30,753 nucleotides of DNA from the NCBI GenBank assembly GCA_030637965.1, contig DAOWFO010000019.1, forward strand, positions 1-30,753, given 5' to 3'. Of the stretch, positions 1 through 28,584 are shown one piece after another. The number at the start of each line of letters is the position of its first letter. The stretch's first letter is position 1. The DNA comes from Thermoplasmata archaeon (GTDB lineage: Archaea > Thermoplasmatota > E2 > DHVEG-1). Position numbers and translations under genes: made by a program. The notes below the pieces were generated by a model. It saw only the letters and a list, made by a program, of their open reading frames with translations, was not told where the DNA came from and did not search any database.

Positions 1-755
1 TCTTCTGGTCCATCGTATTCGCCATCTATTGAAAACATCTTCCTCATTGGTTTAAATTCTGTCTGTTCCTCATATACATGAGCAGTAAGACCAGCAACTC
101 TTCCAATTAAAAAGAATGCTTTACCCAGTTTCCAGTCAAAATCCATATCAGAAATTATCGCTGCTATTGCACCATCCACATTTATCGGAAGTTTCTTTCC
201 TTTTGATATCTCAAGTTCTTTTTCTATTGCTTTAGATAGAGCGATATTGTCTCCAGTAATTTTCAATTCTTCTGCAAGTGAAAAAAGCCTTTCGGTGCGA
301 GGATCTGAAGTGTGAACTCTATGACCAAATCCAAGGATTCGTTTGTTCTGTTCTATTGATTCTTTAACAAGAATTTTTGCTATTTCATCAAATGACTTGA
401 CTTCTTTTTTCATCCTAGATATTCCTTCTTGAAAAAACTTTGCACCTTTTTCAATGGCTCCACCATGTGCATCACCAATAGATAGAATCCCTGCAGCAAC
501 AGCTGTAGGGAGCGGTACTCCACCAGAGGCAACAGATCTTGCAGCAATAGAAGATGGTGGTGTTAAACCATGATCAATACAGGCGGTTAGAATTGCATCC
601 ATCATATGGCCATGTTCTTTAGATGGCAATTCTCCTTTTAAAAGTAAATATACTACATTAGAATAAGATATATTACCTATCAAATCCTCTTGCCTATAGC
701 CCTTTGTTACCAGATGGTTCGGCTCTACTTTAGTAATTTTTGTAGTCCATTTCAT
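1..755 (-). CDS. Citryl-CoA lyase / short citrate-synthase-family protein (3' end truncated by window; missing from ORF track)
   Basis: Manual translation from ATG at 755: MKWTTKITKVEPNHLVTKGYRQEDLIG...DHGLTPPSSIAARSVASGG...GDAHGGA...GFGHRVHTSDPR...NVDGAIAA...GRVAGLTAH...EYDGPE. Citrate-synthase-fold His/His/Asp motifs are present. Starts 3 nt after the citF stop. Confidence 0.85.
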   Translation of the reverse strand, partial: MKWTTKITKVEPNHLVTKGYRQEDLIGNISYSNVVYLLLKGELPSKEHGHMMDAILTACIDHGLTPPSSIAARSVASGGVPLPTAVAAGILSIGDAHGGAIEKGAKFFQEGISRMKKEVKSFDEIAKILVKESIEQNKRILGFGHRVHTSDPRTERLFSLAEELKITGDNIALSKAIEKELEISKGKKLPINVDGAIAAIISDMDFDWKLGKAFFLIGRVAGLTAHVYEEQTEFKPMRKMFSIDGEYDGPE

Positions 756-758
756 TTT

Positions 759-2252
759 TCATTCCAACCCTTTTACCTTTTTAATAATATCTAATACAGT
801 ACCATCAAACCATTTAGTGCAACCAACAAGTCGATCCTCAAATTCTAACTCTTGAGGACCACCTGTTGCATCATAAGCTAATTCTTTTAATTCTTCTATT
901 TGAACGATATCGATTTTTCCTTTTAGATTTTCAATTAAGTCTTCTCTTTTTGGATTTATTGCAATTCCCTTGTCCGTTACAATTGCATCAACTACTTCTC
1001 CAGGTGTTGATATTGTTGTAACTTTTTCTCTAACAATTGGATTTTTTTTTCTGAATATTGGACATGTTATAATACATAGTGACGCTCCAGCAGCCGTGTC
1101 CTGATGGCCACCTATACCGTGAAGCATTCGTCCATCGCTGTGAGTGTTTACATTTACATTGAAATTAATATCAACCTCAGTTGCACCTAACACAACAGTG
1201 TCAAGTCCATCTATTGTTCTACCCTTAGATGTAGGGTCAGCATAATGACCGATATCTGCAGGTATCCCCAGAGTTTCTTGAACGAAATTTACAGCATAGT
1301 CATCAAAAACTTGAGAATAATATAGATTCCTAACATGTCCTGCTTTATAAATGTCAACAATAAGTTTAGTTAAACCACCTGTTGCAGTTGATGCTATAAC
1401 TTTTTTTTCTTCAAGTCTTTCACCAAGATATTTCATTGCAGCAAGAGATATTCCTCCTGCTCCTGACTGAAAAATCATTCCATCCTTTATTATTTCTGCT
1501 GCATCCATTAAATCAACACAGTCTCGTGCTATTTTAAGTTCCATAGGGTCGTCAGTTATTTTTGTTGTCCCTGACATAATATTTGATGAATCTCCAATTC
1601 TATCAATTTGTGCAACATAATCAACATATCTTTCTTGAATTTCTTGATATTTACATGGGTAATCAATAATACTGTCTGTTACCATAATTACATAATCCGC
1701 ATGCATTGCATCAACTTGCGAATAAGAAATTGGACCAAATGCACTCTTCCCAATTATTCCTGTTGAATTTCCTCGTTCATCGGAAGCTGATGCAGCAATA
1801 ACTGCAATATCTATATGTAATTCATCTTTTTTTATTGCAGCCCATCTTCCACCGTGAGAACGTAAAACAACTGGATAAGGTAAAGGATTTCTGGAAATAT
1901 AATCTCCAACTACACCGTTTATACTACCCTCTATACGTGTAACAATTCCTTCTTTAATCAGATCAATAATAGGATTATGTACATTAAACATAGCAGTCTG
2001 TGCTATCATAATGTTTTTAACACCAAGATTGAGCACTGTTTCAAGGGTTTTATTAATTACAAAATCACCATTACGAAGTTGATGATGAAATGAAAGAGTC
2101 ATACCATCTTTTAGACCGCATTTTTTTAATGCATCAGAAAGATTGGTAATTTTTGAAGAATAATTATGTTTTTTTGCACCTGAAAATGGTTTAAATGTTT
2201 CACCAGAAATATCTGTTTCAATTAACCTTCCAGCTGCATTTACAACTTTCAT
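759..2252 (-). CDS. citF: Citrate lyase alpha subunit / citrate CoA-transferase family
   Basis: 497 aa; CitF-type motifs SFHHQLRNGD, RSHGGR, QSGAGG, EVDINFNVNV, GGHQDTA, TPGEVVDAIVTDKGIAINP. Confidence 0.9.
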   Translation of the reverse strand: MKVVNAAGRLIETDISGETFKPFSGAKKHNYSSKITNLSDALKKCGLKDGMTLSFHHQLRNGDFVINKTLETVLNLGVKNIMIAQTAMFNVHNPIIDLIKEGIVTRIEGSINGVVGDYISRNPLPYPVVLRSHGGRWAAIKKDELHIDIAVIAASASDERGNSTGIIGKSAFGPISYSQVDAMHADYVIMVTDSIIDYPCKYQEIQERYVDYVAQIDRIGDSSNIMSGTTKITDDPMELKIARDCVDLMDAAEIIKDGMIFQSGAGGISLAAMKYLGERLEEKKVIASTATGGLTKLIVDIYKAGHVRNLYYSQVFDDYAVNFVQETLGIPADIGHYADPTSKGRTIDGLDTVVLGATEVDINFNVNVNTHSDGRMLHGIGGHQDTAAGASLCIITCPIFRKKNPIVREKVTTISTPGEVVDAIVTDKGIAINPKREDLIENLKGKIDIVQIEELKELAYDATGGPQELEFEDRLVGCTKWFDGTVLDIIKKVKGLE

Positions 2253-2256
2253 AAGT

Positions 2257-2778
2257 TTAACCCAAAGATTTCCTTATTTCAAAATCAATAAAATCACAAT
2301 GATTAACAATAATTGATTCAGGATTTCTTTCTGTTATATCCCCCTCTTTAGAATGCGCGTAAATAATGTATATGATTTCATCTGGAAGACCTAACTCTTT
2401 AGCAAGTAAAGCACCGGATACAGGATGACGGAATTTTTTTGCAGAATCGCATTTTATATATTTACCATTTTTAAATTCATATTCCAATAGTTTACCGACA
2501 TCATGAAGAAGAGCTCCCGCGATTAAATAATCATTATTTATATTCTCTTTTCTTTGTTCCAATATTTTTTTCGCAAGTCTTGTAATACGTTTAGTGTGAT
2601 CAGTTAATTTACCAGAGTTTTCAATTAGAAGGGTAAAAGGTGCATCATCTAGTTTTTTCCATTTTCCACGATCAGATGCCACCTTCCAAACTTGGACAAC
2701 TTTAACTCTTATTTCATTATCTTTTATCCATTTTAATTCTTCTGAAAAACAAGTTTCGATATCACTTTTTTCAACCAT
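2257..2778 (-). CDS. HD-domain (HDIG) metal-dependent phosphohydrolase
   Basis: H(TKR)...GALLHDVGK...RHPVSG...YAH...HCD HD-superfamily motifs. Probable start is ATG 2778 (track starts at GTG 2787). Ends 4 nt before citF. Confidence 0.85.
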   Translation of the reverse strand: MVEKSDIETCFSEELKWIKDNEIRVKVVQVWKVASDRGKWKKLDDAPFTLLIENSGKLTDHTKRITRLAKKILEQRKENINNDYLIAGALLHDVGKLLEYEFKNGKYIKCDSAKKFRHPVSGALLAKELGLPDEIIYIIYAHSKEGDITERNPESIIVNHCDFIDFEIRKSLG

Positions 2779-2904
2779 AGATAACACCCAATGTACTCCT
2801 GTAATTCATATCTATTTATTAACGTTCTGTTTAGAAATATAAATTATTATAACTAATTATAAATAGTAATTTTTTAAAAAAATTGAAATTAGGTTAAAAG
2901 ATAT

Positions 2905-5726: not shown

Positions 5727-6110
5727 TTATTGTATAGTTACTAATGCCTTCTCAGCATCTAATAAAACGGTGTCTCCTTCTTTTATTTTTAATATATCAA
5801 TTTTATCTACACAAGGTATCCCTGCAAGTATGACACCGGTTGCAACAATCGTCTCAGTCTCTTCATTAATTATACCTCTTGGTGCTACACCATTTTTCTT
5901 AAGTCCATAGATTACATAAGAACCTACGGTTGAACCTTTTCCGCATGGAAAAACTAGAATTTTATCTTTAACACATCTTCCTTTAAGTGGATGCTCTTCT
6001 TCAATAACAATGCCAGTATTACTATCAATTCCACCATAGAAACCTATCGGTTCATTTGACACAATTGCAATTCCCTTTGCTCTTCCTGGATATATTGTTC
6101 TTCCTTTCAT
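5727..6110 (-). CDS. Phosphomevalonate dehydratase small subunit (AcnX swivel domain, DUF126)
   Basis: 127 aa; ILVFPCGKGSTVGS motif with putative catalytic Ser; ATGA overlap with the large subunit. Confidence 0.85.
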   Translation of the reverse strand: MKGRTIYPGRAKGIAIVSNEPIGFYGGIDSNTGIVIEEEHPLKGRCVKDKILVFPCGKGSTVGSYVIYGLKKNGVAPRGIINEETETIVATGVILAGIPCVDKIDILKIKEGDTVLLDAEKALVTIQ

Positions 6111-7291
6111 GCTTGCCCCTTTATAAGTTTATCAATATTCGAAAATACAACTTGCTGCTTACAAAATCCGGGCAAATAATTAGCGGCCTTACCAGAATTT
6201 ACCCCCGTTGTTTTATATCCCATCTTCTCAATAGGTGAAACAACCATACAAGTATCTGCTACAACATTACCTCCAGCCCTCTCAATTATTTCAGTAAAGC
6301 CCATTCTATCTGCAACCTCCTTCATAATCCTAGAGGTGCATACCCAAACAGGTTTTTTCAGTTTTTTATCTTTAAGTTTCTCAGAAATTACTGAAATCTC
6401 CTTAATAGATGCATGGGGACATCCAAGAATCACAATGTCTGGGTCTTTACCAGTATTTAATTTTTCATATGTTTCTTCTATTTCTTTTTTTCCGATATCG
6501 ATTGTTTCCAAACCATCTTTTTCTATCAAATCAGCTTCTGGGGTTAGTTCCTTAACATGATACAATGCAACAGCTCCAGAAGCAGCCATTGCAGCTCCGA
6601 GAGCTTTCAATTGATCAGTATTTGCATTTTTAATGCCGGTAAAGTATGGAATCTTGTTTTTTATCATTTTACCAACAAGATATCCTAATGCACTAAAATC
6701 CGAGTTGAAAATCATATCTACATCAATCCTTATTTTAATATTAGGTTGTCTTTTTTCCCAAATATGCAAACCGTAGTTTGGTGTTCTACCGCATATAGCA
6801 GCAGCAAGGGCAGAAGGGCCCCCCTCTCTATTAGTTCTTGCCCCAATAACTGAATTCGAAAACGAAACAGCAGAAGATTCTGACCAAGCAATATGTTCTC
6901 TAAACCTTGGAAGATTTCCAGCTAGATACGGCGTACAAGTAGACGTAACTACAATACCCATTTTCTTAAATGCATCCATAATACGAAGTTGGTTTTTTGC
7001 AAAATCTTTAGGGAATCCAAGTTTGTCCCAGTTTTCAAGATCCATGCCAGCAGGATTAAGATAAGTGAGGACTTGAACTTTGGCACCTTTTGAAGCCATA
7101 TCCTCTAAAAATTCAACTCCAGGATCACCGATTGATTTATAAGATACACCTGCAACTTGGACAGAACCAATAGGGATCATTCTGTCAGCACCATAAATAT
7201 CCCCGAGTCTTACAAGCAGTCTGAACATCCTTTCAAATATCTCACTTTTTTCCCCCTCTAGAATTTTTTCTTCTTCTTTAGTTAGATACAT
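6107..7291 (-). CDS. Phosphomevalonate dehydratase large subunit (aconitase X, DUF521)
   Basis: MYLTKEEEKIL start; Fe-S Cys motifs CTPY, GCPH, DTC; WSESSAV and TNREGG; in an operon with mvk and ubiD. Confidence 0.88.
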   Translation of the reverse strand: MYLTKEEEKILEGEKSEIFERMFRLLVRLGDIYGADRMIPIGSVQVAGVSYKSIGDPGVEFLEDMASKGAKVQVLTYLNPAGMDLENWDKLGFPKDFAKNQLRIMDAFKKMGIVVTSTCTPYLAGNLPRFREHIAWSESSAVSFSNSVIGARTNREGGPSALAAAICGRTPNYGLHIWEKRQPNIKIRIDVDMIFNSDFSALGYLVGKMIKNKIPYFTGIKNANTDQLKALGAAMAASGAVALYHVKELTPEADLIEKDGLETIDIGKKEIEETYEKLNTGKDPDIVILGCPHASIKEISVISEKLKDKKLKKPVWVCTSRIMKEVADRMGFTEIIERAGGNVVADTCMVVSPIEKMGYKTTGVNSGKAANYLPGFCKQQVVFSNIDKLIKGQA

Positions 7292-7599
7292 TCTATTAAA
7301 CTCCTACAATTTTCAACAATTTTATCAATATCTGCTTTAGATGCACTATCTATATGTATGCCACCAAGAGCAACTACTTTTGTGTTATATTTTTTACATG
7401 CTTCTTCTGCAATAGGTTTTAACACAATATAATCATAATGTCCTTCTAATCTTATAACATCTGTTTCTTTTTCAGGTTCACAAACAACAATACCACCAAG
7501 ATGCGATTTTTCTCCTCCACCTAAAATATAGATTCTATCAATACCAATTTCTATCTGTTTTAACCATACTTTGAATTTACCTTTACCCAAGGTAATCAT
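7282..7599 (-). CDS. LpdD-like prenylated-FMN chaperone (proteasome-assembly-chaperone-like fold)
   Basis: IG.D...GG..(S)HLG...GHYD...GGIHID.AS..DI matches the recalled LpdD pattern (IG.D..GG..PHIG...H.D...GIH). It overlaps both neighbours. Start could be 7599, 7605 or TTG 7608. Confidence 0.7.
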   Translation of the reverse strand: MITLGKGKFKVWLKQIEIGIDRIYILGGGEKSHLGGIVVCEPEKETDVIRLEGHYDYIVLKPIAEEACKKYNTKVVALGGIHIDSASKADIDKIVENCRSLIECI

Positions 7600-8893
7600 T
7601 GACATCAACTTTTTTATATTTTACAATTTCATATTTGTTTCTATCAATGTCAAATGGGAGGGTTGCATCAATACCTACTTTTGTTGTTAGAGTCTTCTTT
7701 CCTGACTCATGTTTGCCAGAAGGATCAAGAGAACTTCCAGGTTGATTGGGTTTTATTATAAGGTCTTTATTTCCTTGGAAACGTGTTGCTATGGCCCATT
7801 CAACAGCATTTGGACTGTAAATATCTACGTCTTGTTCAACAATTATCACATGTTTCATACTTTTATGACCTTTAAATGCTGCCTCAATTGCATTTTTTGG
7901 ATCATCTGGATTTTTCTTATCGATCTGGACAATCCCATGAAGCCATGATCCTCCACCCATAGTAACAAGGACATTCTTACAATCAACTACTTTGCTTACC
8001 TCATCGTAAATTGTTGGTTCTTTAGGCATACCCATCAGTAATTTATGTTCTAATCTGCCGGGAATCAATGCTTGATATATTGCGTTTTTTCTATGAGTAA
8101 TATGATCGATAATGAAAACTGGCTCCTGTCTTTCAAAATCTCTCGTTTCAGTAAGATCAACAAAAGGTCCTTCCCTATCAAGGTCTCTCGTTAGTCTACC
8201 TTCAAAAACAAATTCAGAATAAGCAGGGACTTCAAGATCTTTTGTTATACATTTTACCATAGGAGTTTCATCAAGTGCATTAGCAATACCAAATTCATCA
8301 ACACCTGAAGGTGGACCAAGAGATGCTCCAACCATAACTGCAACAGAATTACCAATACAGACTGCCATCTCGAGATCTCCATCAATCTTATCATACGTAG
8401 TGCGAGTTTGTCTATTTTTGATAAGACGTGCAGTAAATTTATTTTTATCAATTTCCATTATACGGTGATATGAGACATTTCTACCTGTTTCAGGATCCTT
8501 TATAGTTGAAACTGTGGCTGAACCATATCTACCACCATCACCTTTTAAATGATATAAAAGTGGGATTTTACTTAAATCAGGATCTTTAATGATTATTTCT
8601 TGACAAGGAGCCTTATCTACCATTTTAGGTTTCTTTGGATTTCGTAAAGCATCAACCAGTTTAAACAGAAGTTTTTCTTTAGTTGTGCCTAAACCTTCGG
8701 CAATAATGTCACGATTTGAAGTAATACCACCAAAAACAGGGAAATTGAATCCTTTCACATTATCAAAGATAACTGGTTTCTCAGATAGAGAATACATAAT
8801 ATTTGCGATTTCAAATTCATGGGATACTTCTTTTTTTATACGTACTAGTTTCTCTTCATGTTCAAGTTTATCAAGAAAACCACGAAGCATCAT
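7583..8893 (-). CDS. UbiD-family prFMN decarboxylase; probable trans-anhydromevalonate 5-phosphate decarboxylase
   Basis: 436 aa; SYHR, EGPFVD, DIY...VEWAIATR, SSLDPS, KVGIDAT motifs; ATGA overlap with mvk. Confidence 0.88.
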   Translation of the reverse strand: MMLRGFLDKLEHEEKLVRIKKEVSHEFEIANIMYSLSEKPVIFDNVKGFNFPVFGGITSNRDIIAEGLGTTKEKLLFKLVDALRNPKKPKMVDKAPCQEIIIKDPDLSKIPLLYHLKGDGGRYGSATVSTIKDPETGRNVSYHRIMEIDKNKFTARLIKNRQTRTTYDKIDGDLEMAVCIGNSVAVMVGASLGPPSGVDEFGIANALDETPMVKCITKDLEVPAYSEFVFEGRLTRDLDREGPFVDLTETRDFERQEPVFIIDHITHRKNAIYQALIPGRLEHKLLMGMPKEPTIYDEVSKVVDCKNVLVTMGGGSWLHGIVQIDKKNPDDPKNAIEAAFKGHKSMKHVIIVEQDVDIYSPNAVEWAIATRFQGNKDLIIKPNQPGSSLDPSGKHESGKKTLTTKVGIDATLPFDIDRNKYEIVKYKKVDVNDYLG

Positions 8894-9843
8894 CGATTAT
8901 ATCCGCTCCCGGATGCGCCAATAACAGTTTTTAATGTTTGAAATCCTTCTTTCTCAAAAGCATTTGCAACCTCTTCTTGTAGTCCTCTACCCGGTGTTAG
9001 TGCAATCATATTCCCCCCTAAACCTCCTCCGGTAAGTTTTGCTCCAAAAGCACCATGATCACGTGCAACACCAACAAGGAAATCAAGTTCTTTTGATGAT
9101 ACTTCAATCTGTTGTAAAAGTTTATGATTTTCATTCATTAATTTACCGACTTCTCTATAATCCTCTTCTTGAAAAGCTCTCTTTGCTAAATAAGCAATAT
9201 TTTCAGCTCTGTTAAAAATTTCTTTGTATTTATTAGAATTTTTCTCTTTTCTCCCTCTAACCCCTTCTACGGCAGCATTTGTATCAGTTACCTTTCCAGT
9301 ATTTCCCATTACGATTTCTACTTGTGAAGGCAAAGAAATTTTTTCTATAACATTTGGATTAGTTTTTTCAAACCATATAAGCCCACCAAAAGTAGATGCG
9401 GTATTATCTACACCAGATGGCGTGCCATGATATCCTTTTTCTCCCTCATATGCAATATCGTTAATCTCATCATCTGACAAATCAAGAGCATAGTATTCTG
9501 AAAGGGCTCTTACCAATGCCACACATGATGCAGCACTAGCACCTATTCCACTTGCAGCATAAAGATTACCACTTAATTCAATTGCCACACCATCTTTAGA
9601 AAAATCGATATTCATCTTCTCTATAATATTCTTAATTGAAACTTTTTGTTGTTCTAACTTATCCTCTTTATATCCTGGCGTAGCCAATCTATTGTCATCA
9701 AGTTTCAACTCAGGAATCTCAAAGGGTGACACCCTCGCAACAGTGTATTTTCCTATTGCTGATACAATAGCTGGAACACCATATACAACAAAGTGTTCAT
9801 TAAATAAAATTACTTTACCAAAACCTATGCCCTCGCCCTTCAT
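8890..9843 (-). CDS. mvk: Mevalonate kinase (GHMP family)
   Basis: GKVILFNEHFVVYG, SGIGASAA, HGTPSGVDN, GAKLTGGGLGG. Probable start ATG 9843. Confidence 0.88.
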   Translation of the reverse strand: MKGEGIGFGKVILFNEHFVVYGVPAIVSAIGKYTVARVSPFEIPELKLDDNRLATPGYKEDKLEQQKVSIKNIIEKMNIDFSKDGVAIELSGNLYAASGIGASAASCVALVRALSEYYALDLSDDEINDIAYEGEKGYHGTPSGVDNTASTFGGLIWFEKTNPNVIEKISLPSQVEIVMGNTGKVTDTNAAVEGVRGRKEKNSNKYKEIFNRAENIAYLAKRAFQEEDYREVGKLMNENHKLLQQIEVSSKELDFLVGVARDHGAFGAKLTGGGLGGNMIALTPGRGLQEEVANAFEKEGFQTLKTVIGASGSGYNR

Positions 9844-10147
9844 ATATATCACATATATTATTTTGTAATATTCTTCTCATATGTTCATTTTTTACTACGT
9901 AATATAGAAATCAGTATTTCTTTTTTATCATTAAAGTAAAGCTTAGGTGGGCAAGTATATATGCAAGATTATGAATATATTTTTCGATTTTTAACTACTC
10001 CGTTCACCCTAAAGAAATATTATCTTAAAATTAGATTGCAAATAAATTCTACTGATAGCCTTCCAAACTTATGTATTCAATATACTTTTTAATGAATATA
10101 AAGTTAAACGTTAAATTCTAAATATTTTAAAATTCATACATGTTCAG

Positions 10148-22738: not shown

Positions 22739-23851
22739 TTATTTTGTCTTTTTAAATCTCGCCCCCAGTTTTTTCATAATTTTTGGAAGTGTTGTATACT
22801 CCATGTCAGCCATTGGTAAACGGTGGGGTTCAAAGGGACCGTGTCTCCTCATATAATCAGTAATATATTGGGCTTCTTCTCTTGTACGATCGAATGCAGG
22901 ATCGTCAAATAGATCTACAGGATCTGTCAATTTTCCATTTTTTAGTTGAAACCCAAGTGCTGTAACTCTTGGTGGGCCATCAAATCTCGTACATTGCGCA
23001 TCTTTTACTGATACTGGCATAAGAGGACCATTATGAGATCCCCTCATCCATCCTGATACGAGATGCCCCAATGAAAAACCTTCTAGAACTTCGCCAACAG
23101 CTGGAAGTCCTGATTGCGCCCTTACAACACCGGCTGGGTCATCCTTACCAACATACTCTCCAGCAATTTGATAGAGTTTTTCAGTTGAAATTACAGATAC
23201 AGGCTCATTTGAATCTAACTTAGAACTCTTCTTTGGATAAACTCGTTTTACAACAAATCTAGATTTTGCTCCTATCAATGCTAAAAGATCGTACATCTCC
23301 TCAGGCGTTTCTAAGTAAACTTGTTTATGTTCTTGAATATCCCATACTTCAAAAACAAATCCATCATGAATAGAAGGATCAATAATTAAACCTGCAGTAT
23401 TGAAAGGATCTGCAAAAATCTTGAAAATTGGAAAATTGAAAGCACCTGGTTCTGTTTTGTCCATCATGAATGCAAGTATAGGTTCGGCCTTTCTTTCGGT
23501 AAATTCCATCTCAGCGACACCTGGGCCCATACCCTTCACATTACCAGAAAACGCATCTGAAAGTAAATCTTGACCTGCTCCATATAAGCCCAAATCGCGT
23601 GCTTTCTCTGTTGCCTCACAAAAAGTATCCCATGCAAGACGATGAATCTCCTTACTATCAGTACCGTTGGTATGGGTCATAATAAGTTCCAAATCATCCC
23701 CACAATGTGTCACATGGAAGTCCTTTAACAAATTGGATCTTTTTGCATCTACAAGTTTTTTATAAGCAATTTTTTCAAGATCTGGATGAACCAGTGCATG
23801 TCCTGGCCAACCTCCGACATCTGCTTTAATAATACTAAATGTAGTTTTCAT
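22739..23851 (-). CDS. fbp: Bifunctional fructose-1,6-bisphosphate aldolase/phosphatase (class V)
   Basis: IKADVGG, HCGDD, YGAGQDLL, NVKGMGPG, DKTEPGAFN, YVGKDDP, GWMRGSH, RHGPFEP. GGAGG precedes ATG 23851. Confidence 0.96.
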   Translation of the reverse strand: MKTTFSIIKADVGGWPGHALVHPDLEKIAYKKLVDAKRSNLLKDFHVTHCGDDLELIMTHTNGTDSKEIHRLAWDTFCEATEKARDLGLYGAGQDLLSDAFSGNVKGMGPGVAEMEFTERKAEPILAFMMDKTEPGAFNFPIFKIFADPFNTAGLIIDPSIHDGFVFEVWDIQEHKQVYLETPEEMYDLLALIGAKSRFVVKRVYPKKSSKLDSNEPVSVISTEKLYQIAGEYVGKDDPAGVVRAQSGLPAVGEVLEGFSLGHLVSGWMRGSHNGPLMPVSVKDAQCTRFDGPPRVTALGFQLKNGKLTDPVDLFDDPAFDRTREEAQYITDYMRRHGPFEPHRLPMADMEYTTLPKIMKKLGARFKKTK

Positions 23852-23968
23852 CTGAGGCCTCCATCCCATCGTATATGTAAGCTATTTATAAATAATTTGG
23901 AAAAAAATAATCCAACTTAGAAAAGTATATATTTTTATCCATATTCTATATAAACCGATGTGCGAAGA

Positions 23969-26609: not shown

Positions 26610-27920
26610 ATGGACAAGCCCTTTAATAAAAAAATTGAAACAATGCCACGAAAAGATTTAAAAGAAATACAATTAAAAAATTTAAAAAAGACTGTGAAAA
26701 ATGTAAACGATAATGTCCCGTTTTATAATAAGAAATTCAAGGAATTTAAGATAACACCAGATGATATTAAAACCTTAGATGATATTCGAAAGCTTCCACT
26801 TACAACTAAGAATGATCTTAGAGATAATGCTCCTTTTGGAATGATGGCTACATCCTTAGAAAATTGTAACGAACTTCATGCATCATCTGGAACTACAGGT
26901 ATTCCTATAACAACCTGCTATACTCAAAATGATATAGATGTCTGGTCAGAAGTTATGGCCAGATGTCTGTCCATGTCAGGTCTTACTAAAAAAGATATAT
27001 TTCAGAATCCTATTCCATATGGAACGTTCACCGGTGCTTTTGGATTTCATTATGGAGCACAAAAGGTAGGTGCACTTGTTATACCTACAGGGAAAGGACA
27101 GTCAGAAAGACAGCTAAAACTTATGGATTATTATGGAACCACGTTTATTTCAGGTGTTGCATCCTATGCAATGCGGCTATCTCAGGTTGCACAGGATATG
27201 GATATCAATTTGAAAAAACTAAAAGTCCGAAATGGTCTTTTTGGGGCTGAAATGTTCACCCCTGGTTTAAAAAAGCGAATAATGGATGCTTGGAACATGG
27301 ATGTCCACGATATTTATGGACTTACAGAAATGTGTGGTCCAGGAGTTTCAACAGATTGTGATCAACACGATGGTCTTCATTTATGGGAGGATCATTTCTT
27401 AATTGAATGTTTAGATCCGAAAACGTTGGAAAGTGTAGAACTTGAAGAAGAAGGTGAAATTGTTCTTACAACACTTACAAAAGAGGGGATGCCTCTTTTA
27501 CGTTATAGAACTAGAGATATTGCAAAAATCTATGATCAAGTGGTATGTGAGTGTGGTAGGACCCATGTTAAACATACAACCATCAAAGGGCGAAGTGATG
27601 ATATGTTGATTATACGTGGAACAAACATCTATCCTGGTCAAATTGAATCTGTTTTAATGAAAAACCAAGAGGTTGGAGGAAATTGGAGAATGATACTAAC
27701 TACTGAAAATAATGTTGACGTGCTAAAAGTAGAAGTAGAAAGTAAAACCATAATGAGTCAGGTTGAATCTATGAACCTTGAGGAAAGTTTAAAAAATAAT
27801 ATAAAATCAGTCATTGTATTCACTCCAAGGATAGAAATTTTACCTCCAAAAGGCATTCCTAAAACAGGTTTAAAGGCTAAACGTGTTATTGATGAAAGAA
27901 AAAGGAATGAAGATGAATAA
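26610..27920 (+). CDS. Phenylacetate-CoA ligase (PaaK)-family AMP-forming acyl-CoA ligase
   Basis: SSGTTG, DIYGLTEMCGPG, HLWEDHF, LRYRTRDI, GRSDDM..IRGTN..P.QIE. Confidence 0.9.
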   Translation: MDKPFNKKIETMPRKDLKEIQLKNLKKTVKNVNDNVPFYNKKFKEFKITPDDIKTLDDIRKLPLTTKNDLRDNAPFGMMATSLENCNELHASSGTTGIPITTCYTQNDIDVWSEVMARCLSMSGLTKKDIFQNPIPYGTFTGAFGFHYGAQKVGALVIPTGKGQSERQLKLMDYYGTTFISGVASYAMRLSQVAQDMDINLKKLKVRNGLFGAEMFTPGLKKRIMDAWNMDVHDIYGLTEMCGPGVSTDCDQHDGLHLWEDHFLIECLDPKTLESVELEEEGEIVLTTLTKEGMPLLRYRTRDIAKIYDQVVCECGRTHVKHTTIKGRSDDMLIIRGTNIYPGQIESVLMKNQEVGGNWRMILTTENNVDVLKVEVESKTIMSQVESMNLEESLKNNIKSVIVFTPRIEILPPKGIPKTGLKAKRVIDERKRNEDE

Positions 27921-28569
27921 AATCATTGATAAAATCATAGATAGAAAGGGAGCTCTATCAGAAAACGAAGTAAAGGATTTGATGAAAGCCTTTGGTATAA
28001 GAACTACAAACTATAAAGTTATAAAAAATCTAGAAGATTTAGATAATTTGGGACTTTCATTTCCTGTAGCTCTCAAAGTTTGTTCTAGAAAAATTTTACA
28101 TAAAACTGATTTGGGTGGTGTAATATTAGACATAAAAAATATGGATGAACTTAAAAAAACATTCAAAGAGTTTAAGAAAAAGTTCCCAAAAGAAAACCTC
28201 CTTGTTGACCAGATGGAAAAAAAAGGCGTTGAGATAATCATTGGGCTTGTACAAGATCCAACATTTGGCCTGTCCATTATGTATGGAATTGGCGGGATTT
28301 ACACTGAACTTTATGAGGATGTGTCGTTTCGAATTGTGCCTATCGATCAATATGATGCAGAACAGATGGTTGAAGAAATTAAGGGGAAAAAACTGCTGGA
28401 AGGGTTTAGAAACATACCAGCTAATAAACAATTAGTTATTGATCTTCTAATAAAAGTATCAAAAATTGGAGAAGAGCTAATTAACCATATTGATCAGATG
28501 GATTTAAATCCAATATTTGTGTATGAAAACAATATTTGTGTTGTTGACGCTAAACTTATATTAAAATAA
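27907..28569 (+). CDS. ADP-forming acyl-CoA synthetase (ACD) beta subunit, ATP-grasp
   Basis: FPVALKV, HKTDLGGV, EIIIG...DPTFG...GIGGIYTE...DV, DLNP, VDAK; overlaps the PaaK-like stop. Confidence 0.9.
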   Translation: MKMNKIIDKIIDRKGALSENEVKDLMKAFGIRTTNYKVIKNLEDLDNLGLSFPVALKVCSRKILHKTDLGGVILDIKNMDELKKTFKEFKKKFPKENLLVDQMEKKGVEIIIGLVQDPTFGLSIMYGIGGIYTELYEDVSFRIVPIDQYDAEQMVEEIKGKKLLEGFRNIPANKQLVIDLLIKVSKIGEELINHIDQMDLNPIFVYENNICVVDAKLILK

Positions 28570-28584
28570 AAAAAATAGGTGTTT

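Follow-up and report, generated by a model that had tools for sequence, protein, structure and literature searches.

What is the CoA-transferase subunit of citrate lyase doing in a genome from which the rest of that enzyme appears to be missing? The question is raised by one end of a 30,753-nucleotide stretch of DNA (the whole of the 30.7-kb contig C28, "the window" in what follows) from an 867-kb metagenome-assembled genome (MAG; 87 contigs, 74% complete) of an uncultured sediment archaeon of the Thermoplasmatota, MBG-D type. A citF gene, specifying a citrate CoA-transferase, is followed there by ccl, specifying a short protein of the citrate synthase fold. An earlier examination of the DNA without database searches (the "sequence-only reading") had proposed that modules of two unrelated systems are combined here into a two-step route of citrate cleavage that requires neither ATP nor an acyl carrier protein (ACP). 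The answer offered below is along the same lines: on balance, the operon HD-CitF-Ccl-(aconitase-family) probably encodes a two-enzyme citrate lyase that dispenses with a carrier protein and with ATP.

The proposed scheme is simple. CitF would transfer CoA from acetyl-CoA to citrate, yielding free (3S)-citryl-CoA and acetate (EC 2.8.3.10); Ccl would cleave citryl-CoA to oxaloacetate and acetyl-CoA (EC 4.1.3.34), and the acetyl-CoA would return to CitF. The net reaction would be citrate to acetate and oxaloacetate, with cleavage as the presumed direction and acetyl-CoA as the presumed donor. Free CoA would take the place of the tethered dephospho-CoA arm of the classical enzyme, a lyase of the citrate synthase fold would take the place of TIM-barrel CitE, and the aconitase-family enzyme encoded downstream would tie the pair to isocitrate. 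The standard free energy change of the net reaction is near zero, so that cleavage should be favored at cellular metabolite levels.

The identities of the two proteins come first. CitF scores 466 bits with PF04223 and 512 bits with the TIGR01584 citF model (cut-off 501), and aligns through its residues 33-495 with the structure of Salmonella CitF (PDB 1XR4; E 6e-113). Among the recorded substrates of class II CoA-transferases are free acetyl-CoA and citryl-CoA (PMC8085960). Ccl matches PF00285 and exceeds the cut-offs of two more specific models (NF004866, "citryl-CoA lyase", 301 bits against 245; NF004869, 298 bits against 212). An orthologue in genome G017 (82% identical) matches PDB 6HXP, "Citryl-CoA lyase", over its whole length (E 2e-72), with citrate synthases and the C-terminal module of AclA scoring far below. 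Catalytic residues align with those of 6HXP and of citrate synthase 2C6X: the window Ccl has H97 (in AHGGA), H145 (GFGHRVH), D194 (NVDG), R153 (in DPR) and R219, all of them invariant or nearly so in 40 sequences. R153 and R219 are presumably the oxaloacetate-binding arginines, going by citrate synthase numbering; we know of no residue-level signature that tells a lyase from a synthase. The window Ccl is a member of the citryl-CoA lyase family (EC 4.1.3.34; PRK06224), and lyase activity, with the thioester left unhydrolyzed, is its predicted property. More than 5000 close homologues are found in metagenomes; next to the nearest representative from outside the MBG-D group (P0122), the upstream gene is a PPIase-like fragment. 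A prediction of the CitF + Ccl complex, with both proteins entered as alignments, scored 0.00, which speaks neither for nor against binding.

The two genes are part of a larger unit (Table 1). A gene for an HD-domain protein ends 4 nt upstream of citF, and a gap of 3 nt separates citF from ccl, all three genes lying head to tail on the minus strand; the 3-nt spacer implies co-transcription and makes coupled translation probable. The window's first base truncates ccl, leaving 251 of its 258 codons inside. Another contig, C46, repairs the loss: its right end matches the window's first 141 bases without a difference, and joining the two supplies the last 7 codons and a full Ccl of 258 aa. Approximately 30 nt past ccl, C46 continues with a fused gene of the aconitase/LeuCD family (587 aa), behind which lies a TauE-like gene. 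The unit is HD-CitF-Ccl-aconitase-family, a single operon. The sequence-only reading had the gene order, the 3-nt gap, the intact motifs and the coordinates right. It had called ccl a short gene: the gene as it stands in the window is cut, but the shortness is genuine, since orthologues are 255-264 aa long. The pairing of CitF with Ccl likewise stands; the two-gene cassette has had to be enlarged by the HD protein and the aconitase-family gene. Two ideas have been rejected: 1) a citDE pair immediately beyond base 1, whose place is taken, in the overlapping C46, by the aconitase-family gene; 2) a truncated citrate synthase pseudogene, ruled out by the constancy of length (255-264 aa) across dozens of genomes and by the full-length match to a curated family. 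As for the HD protein, a PDB sequence search gave no match, and an atlas search returned generic HD-domain clusters only.

Table 1. Features of the window, in order of position
Feature	Position	Strand	Matches and remarks
Ccl, short citrate-synthase-fold citryl-CoA lyase (predicted)	3-755	-	NF004866, PF00285; 6HXP match by G017 orthologue
Spacer between citF stop and ccl start, 3 nt	756-758	-	citF stop is TGA
CitF-type citrate CoA-transferase (class II CoA-transferase), 497 aa	759-2252	-	PF04223, TIGR01584, PDB 1XR4
HD/HDIG-domain protein	2257-2787	-	PF01966, TIGR00277; first gene of operon
Double zinc-ribbon protein, 84 aa	2905-3159	-	
CrtC/AttH/lipocalin-like protein, 427 aa	3525-4808	+	
Mevalonate pathway gene run, archaeal type	5727-9852	-	
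Class V fructose-1,6-bisphosphate aldolase/phosphatase	22739-23869	-	PF01950, 603 bits
AMP-binding acyl-CoA ligase overlapping ATP-grasp_5 protein	26610-28569	+	

Is the classical enzyme really missing? CitD, CitE, CitC, CitG and CitX are absent from the window, as had been noted from the sequence, and none of them was found in the whole MAG; the CitE-type family PF03328, in particular, was not found in the window genome. Since the MAG is incomplete, all 118 genomes of its order were searched as well, 108 of which (the window genome counted) constitute its family. None of the 108 family genomes, many of them more than 90% complete, yielded CitD (PF06857), and none of the 118 yielded CitC (PF08218), CitG (PF01874) or CitX (PF03802). 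(The respective profiles detected their positive controls: E. coli for CitD, control genomes for the other three.) HpcH/CitE-type matches are scattered through 18 of the 107 other family genomes, 11 of them above the cut-off, and none among those listed adjoins citF.

The pairing itself is widespread. Of the 118 genomes of the order 88 have CitF, as do 80 of the 108 in the family, and in approximately 75 of these CitF-bearing family genomes (a count obtained by comparing gene coordinates) a Ccl of 255-280 aa lies directly downstream on the same strand, with the exceptions at contig ends. Adjacency on one strand in so many related genomes is not due to chance. The spacing, read in detail at 25 orthologous loci, ranges from a short overlap (4 nt) to a few bases, gaps of 3-4 nt included. 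The layout in the family is HD-CitF-Ccl followed by an aconitase-family gene or by a B12/radical-SAM gene, and G161, a member of another class of the phylum, also has HD-CitF-Ccl. These observations bear on the most skeptical interpretation: that CitF and Ccl are neighbors without a shared pathway, or that CitF depends on an unrecognized carrier encoded elsewhere. The existence, in other Thermoplasmatota, of standalone CitF paralogues without a lyase gene lends this some color, as does the fact that the MAG is only 74% complete. It is nevertheless highly improbable when set against the 3-4 nt adjacency in some 75 genomes and a second class, the monophyly (described below) of the CitFs that have a citrate-synthase-fold partner, and the lack of any CitD-like ACP in the 108 genomes.

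The paralogues just mentioned (at loci L030, L032, L037, L039, L041, L044 and L048) are extra copies whose surroundings contain neither a lyase nor a carrier gene; they adjoin genes for KsgA-type rRNA methylase, TPR or HypF proteins or tRNA synthetases, and look like standalone CoA-transferases of the CitF family. One family genome has, beside Ccl, a CitF that is broken in two and contains 2 in-frame TGA codons (G076:C28:20106-21478), perhaps the result of gene decay or of misassembly.

Where the pair is missing, something else takes its place. Seventeen family genomes that lack CitF carry HD-CcsA-CcsB::CS instead, that is, a citryl-CoA synthetase (Ccs) cassette: CcsA is a 427-aa, succinyl-CoA-synthetase-β-like protein, and CcsB::CS is a 715-aa fusion of CoA-binding, CoA-ligase and full-length citrate-synthase domains (intact in 16 of these genomes, split in two in one). 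The fusion was found in no CitF-bearing genome of the family. In G043 and G070, CcsA and the fusion are lodged between the genes that flank CitF-Ccl elsewhere, HD on one side and the downstream radical-SAM or aconitase gene on the other, and G043 retains even the same divergent 427-aa CrtC/AttH-like neighbor (45% identity to the window's). When the CcsA of G043 is used as a query in the window genome (74% complete), only a weak ATP-grasp match, 30 bits, turns up (window 27961-28575). A search for ccsA and ccsB had been proposed together with the sequence-only reading; its outcome is that weak match, along with the confinement of the family's Ccs cassettes to genomes without CitF.

Further out, the same locus is differently furnished. 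In sister families and in other classes, the arrangement is HD-[fused CitD-CitE]-CitF or else CitF with aconitase after it; the CitF of the sister families is approximately 45% identical, and its locus is the same HD-flanked one. G030 and G154 combine HD-CitF with a free citrate-synthase-like protein of 350-360 aa, and that of G030 shares 69% identity with the Ccs fusion's citrate-synthase domain. The HD protein is the conserved neighbor of every cassette variant: its gene adjoins CitF-Ccl (L010, L012, L014, L019, L034), CitDE-CitF (L006-L008), CcsA-CcsB::CS (L017, L020, L027) and a high-GC CcsB::Ccl (L053). The last of these deserves a comment of its own: metagenome contigs of 68% GC (L053:336-6303 and L054) have a CcsA-like gene, a 575-aa fusion of CcsB with short Ccl, HD, fused aconitase and Iso_dh in a row, which implies that citryl-CoA lyase systems keep the company of HD and aconitase genes far beyond this group of archaea.

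In the CitF tree, all CitFs with a citrate-synthase-fold partner form one clade (support 100/100, stem 0.56), outside of which lie the CitDE- or CitE-linked and the standalone CitFs. The tree of citrate-synthase folds groups the short Ccls linked to CitF in a single clade (100/98), nested in a general short-Ccl family to which Ccls linked or fused to Ccs also belong. A second clade (100/99) holds the long forms, those linked to CitF intermingled with those fused to CcsB, and the C-termini of AclA lie at a great distance (stem length 4.2). The survey of citF neighborhoods and the trees of both genes thus show a recurrent pair, with one CitF clade joined to two Ccl branches. One CitF lineage with two lineages of Ccl, and one Ccl lineage with either CitF or CcsAB: the pattern suggests that CitF and CcsAB are to be read as alternative ways of making citryl-CoA for a Ccl-type lyase.

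The exchange with an ATP-dependent system also invites the thought that the net product should be the same, acetyl-CoA. Were succinyl-CoA the donor, the pair would convert citrate and succinyl-CoA to acetyl-CoA, oxaloacetate and succinate, and could stand in for ATP-citrate lyase in a tricarboxylic acid (TCA) cycle of the reductive or branched kind. With free CoA esters, the acetyl-CoA released by Ccl is indeed at liberty to leave, and succinyl-CoA is a listed substrate of citramalate CoA-transferase (PMC8085960). Still, the characterized CitF uses an acetyl thioester and the operon contains no succinyl-CoA-related gene; succinyl-CoA as the donor is very unlikely.

The fused CitD-CitE proteins that sister lineages encode beside CitF (L006:233-1366, L008:236-1369 and L003:3056-4327) bear on the order of events. 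At the position of E. coli CitD Ser14, the residue to which the prosthetic group is attached, they have E or K (an assignment resting on alignment at 23-30% identity, and moderately secure), and the genomes encoding them also gave no match to CitC, CitG or CitX. It follows that carrier-free use of CitF is probably older than the swap of the lyase. Whether the switch of partner left its mark on CitF itself is another matter: CitFs with a citrate-synthase-fold partner differ from other CitFs in 2 differently fixed columns (Q58/H, Y311/L) and in an N-terminal deletion of approximately 15 residues, too little on which to argue for the loss of a carrier-docking surface.

The ATP-free, carrier-free route assembled from two unrelated systems is supported, then, by the missing carrier genes, by the exchange at the locus and by the closeness of Ccl to 6HXP. 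Several observations weigh against it. 1) The window CitF is only just above the citF equivalog cut-off (512 vs 501 bits), with CitDE-linked relatives scoring 617. 2) The 587-aa dehydratase scores best with models of the LeuC/homoaconitase type and falls under every equivalog cut-off, so that its substrate is not fixed. 3) Most relatives have a standard AclB-AclA pair (ATP-citrate lyase) beside isocitrate dehydrogenase and aconitase. 4) A fragment of the AclA C-terminus (24 residues, 71% identity) is present at a contig end in the MAG itself (G000 contig C50:6219-6290; L079). 5) A role in making citrate, rather than cleaving it, has room, because no canonical citrate synthase was found in the 118 order genomes (the Re-type enzyme, of the isopropylmalate synthase family, was not searched for).

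The first two points raise the possibility of a different substrate: citramalate, 2-methylcitrate or homocitrate in place of citrate, with CitF and Ccl making and splitting (or condensing) the corresponding acyl-CoA and the LeuCD-like dehydratase acting on the product. That the second known class II CoA-transferase is citramalate CoA-transferase (PMC8085960) is consistent with it, as are the below-cut-off scores of the downstream enzyme and the divergence of the window's CitF clade (its stem, its N-terminal deletion and its near-threshold score). On the other hand, the close match of Ccl to 6HXP favors citryl-CoA as the substrate, R153 and R219 are kept, and the modules with which the parts of this cassette are interchangeable are a CitE-type citrate lyase β and a Ccs-type synthetase. 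Another substrate seems decidedly unlikely, and citrate is taken as the substrate in what follows.

The third and fourth points demand a correction of emphasis rather than of mechanism. AclB was not found in the MAG and there is no AclB-AclA at the citF locus, but the AclA fragment at a contig end, taken together with the gene content of the relatives, makes it probable that ATP-citrate lyase is encoded elsewhere in this genome in a part that was not assembled. CitF-Ccl would accordingly be a second citrate system, in need of a reason to exist: cleavage without ATP holds up as a proposal, and the notion of CitF-Ccl as the only citrate system does not.

The fifth point raises the possibility of operation in reverse: Ccl condensing acetyl-CoA with oxaloacetate, and CitF handing on CoA to acetate or succinate, the sum being a citrate synthase that saves the energy of the thioester and feeds aconitase and the route to 2-oxoglutarate. 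Canonical citrate synthase is, after all, undetected in every one of the 118 genomes, in which Ccl-like forms of 360 aa and 715 aa give the best full-length matches to citrate synthase; the operon runs into an aconitase-family gene, and related cassettes into an Iso_dh gene. ATP-citrate lyase provides a precedent, working in reverse as the citrate synthase of Desulfobacter postgatei. The main paper on MBG-D genomes, moreover, assumes an oxidative TCA cycle (PMC6461988). The obstacle is thermodynamic: at micromolar oxaloacetate, the formation of citrate from acetate and oxaloacetate is unfavorable by approximately 15-20 kJ/mol (textbook values). In addition, the Re-type citrate synthase that was not searched for could supply citrate, and the ATP-citrate lyase of most of these genomes could do the same job. 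Synthesis as the pair's function is unlikely. A looser proposal, that of a freely reversible, thioester-conserving citrate node serving citrate synthesis or a succinyl-CoA-driven release of acetyl-CoA without ATP, is doubtful too, if a little less so. Cleavage of citrate by CitF and Ccl, with acetyl-CoA as the donor, is the reading retained here.

How does such an enzyme compare with those already known? CitF is homologous over its full length to the α subunit of the bacterial CitDEF citrate lyase (EC 4.1.3.6; E. coli, Klebsiella, Leuconostoc), which is made with the help of CitC, CitG and CitX, and the predicted net reaction and both partial reactions (EC 2.8.3.10 and 4.1.3.34) are the same; the window system differs in lacking CitD, the TIM-barrel CitE and CitC/G/X, and in the predicted cleavage of free citryl-CoA by an unrelated fold. 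With CcsAB + Ccl (Hydrogenobacter thermophilus and relatives) it shares the Ccl family, a free citryl-CoA intermediate and, in L053, the HD and aconitase neighbors. Unlike that system, it would make citryl-CoA by CoA transfer, with no ATP-dependent ligase of the succinyl-CoA synthetase kind, and its net product, with acetyl-CoA as the donor, would be acetate instead of acetyl-CoA. The C-terminal AclA module of ATP-citrate lyase (AclAB/ACLY) is distantly homologous to Ccl, whereas the ATP-grasp, citrate-binding and CoA-ligase parts of that enzyme have no counterpart in the window system. A fused CitD-CitE beside CitF has been noted for Ignavibacterium album (PMC3362086) and was found here in the sister archaeal families, whose lyase is a CitE TIM barrel with a vestigial ACP domain, in contrast to the citrate-synthase-fold Ccl of the window. 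Full-text literature searches found no published description of a CitF-Ccl pair, and the main MBG-D genome paper leaves citrate unmentioned and states that aclAB was not found (PMC6461988). Both parts belong to known families; the combination is new.

The remaining genes of the window that merit mention can be dealt with briefly (coordinates in Table 1). The 84-aa double zinc-ribbon protein, encoded just upstream of the HD gene, has a counterpart in G024 (55% identity). The 427-aa protein has an N-terminal hydrophobic stretch, no Pfam match above the cut-off, and CrtC/AttH/lipocalin-like features in the atlas; its gene is divergent to the HD gene, a position kept in CitF-Ccl relatives and in one Ccs-type relative. 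The mevalonate run comprises AcnX small (127 aa) and large (394 aa) subunits, a UbiD-family decarboxylase (436 aa) and a GHMP kinase (320 aa). The fructose-1,6-bisphosphate aldolase/phosphatase is the archaeal gluconeogenic enzyme. The acyl-CoA ligase (436 aa) is overlapped by an ATP-grasp_5 protein (228 aa) resembling the β part of ADP-forming acyl-CoA synthetases, which could bear on the balance between acetate and acetyl-CoA.

Citrate cleavage has three recognized enzymatic solutions: CitDEF, which uses a carrier arm; ATP-citrate lyase or Ccs with Ccl; and citrate synthase run in reverse. If the present interpretation is correct, a CoA-transferase working with a lyase of the citrate synthase fold is a fourth, put together from parts of two known systems and requiring neither ATP nor the CitC/G/X machinery for making a prosthetic group. 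If the pair should turn out to be a reversible node instead, the key step of the (reverse) TCA cycle would have a third solution, one free of ATP, in addition to ATP-citrate lyase and to citrate synthase running backward. The exchange of three cassettes at a single locus (CitDE-CitF, CitF-Ccl, Ccs::CS) is a clean natural case of modular non-orthologous replacement, and a two-protein, cofactor-free citrate lyase could serve pathway engineering. The archaea of marine sediments in which the CitF-Ccl cassette occurs are a cosmopolitan and very abundant group, and most of their genomes have it. Annotation pipelines label its parts "citrate synthase" and "citrate lyase alpha", and reconstructions of the flow of carbon through this group are, for that reason, probably wrong at the citrate node.

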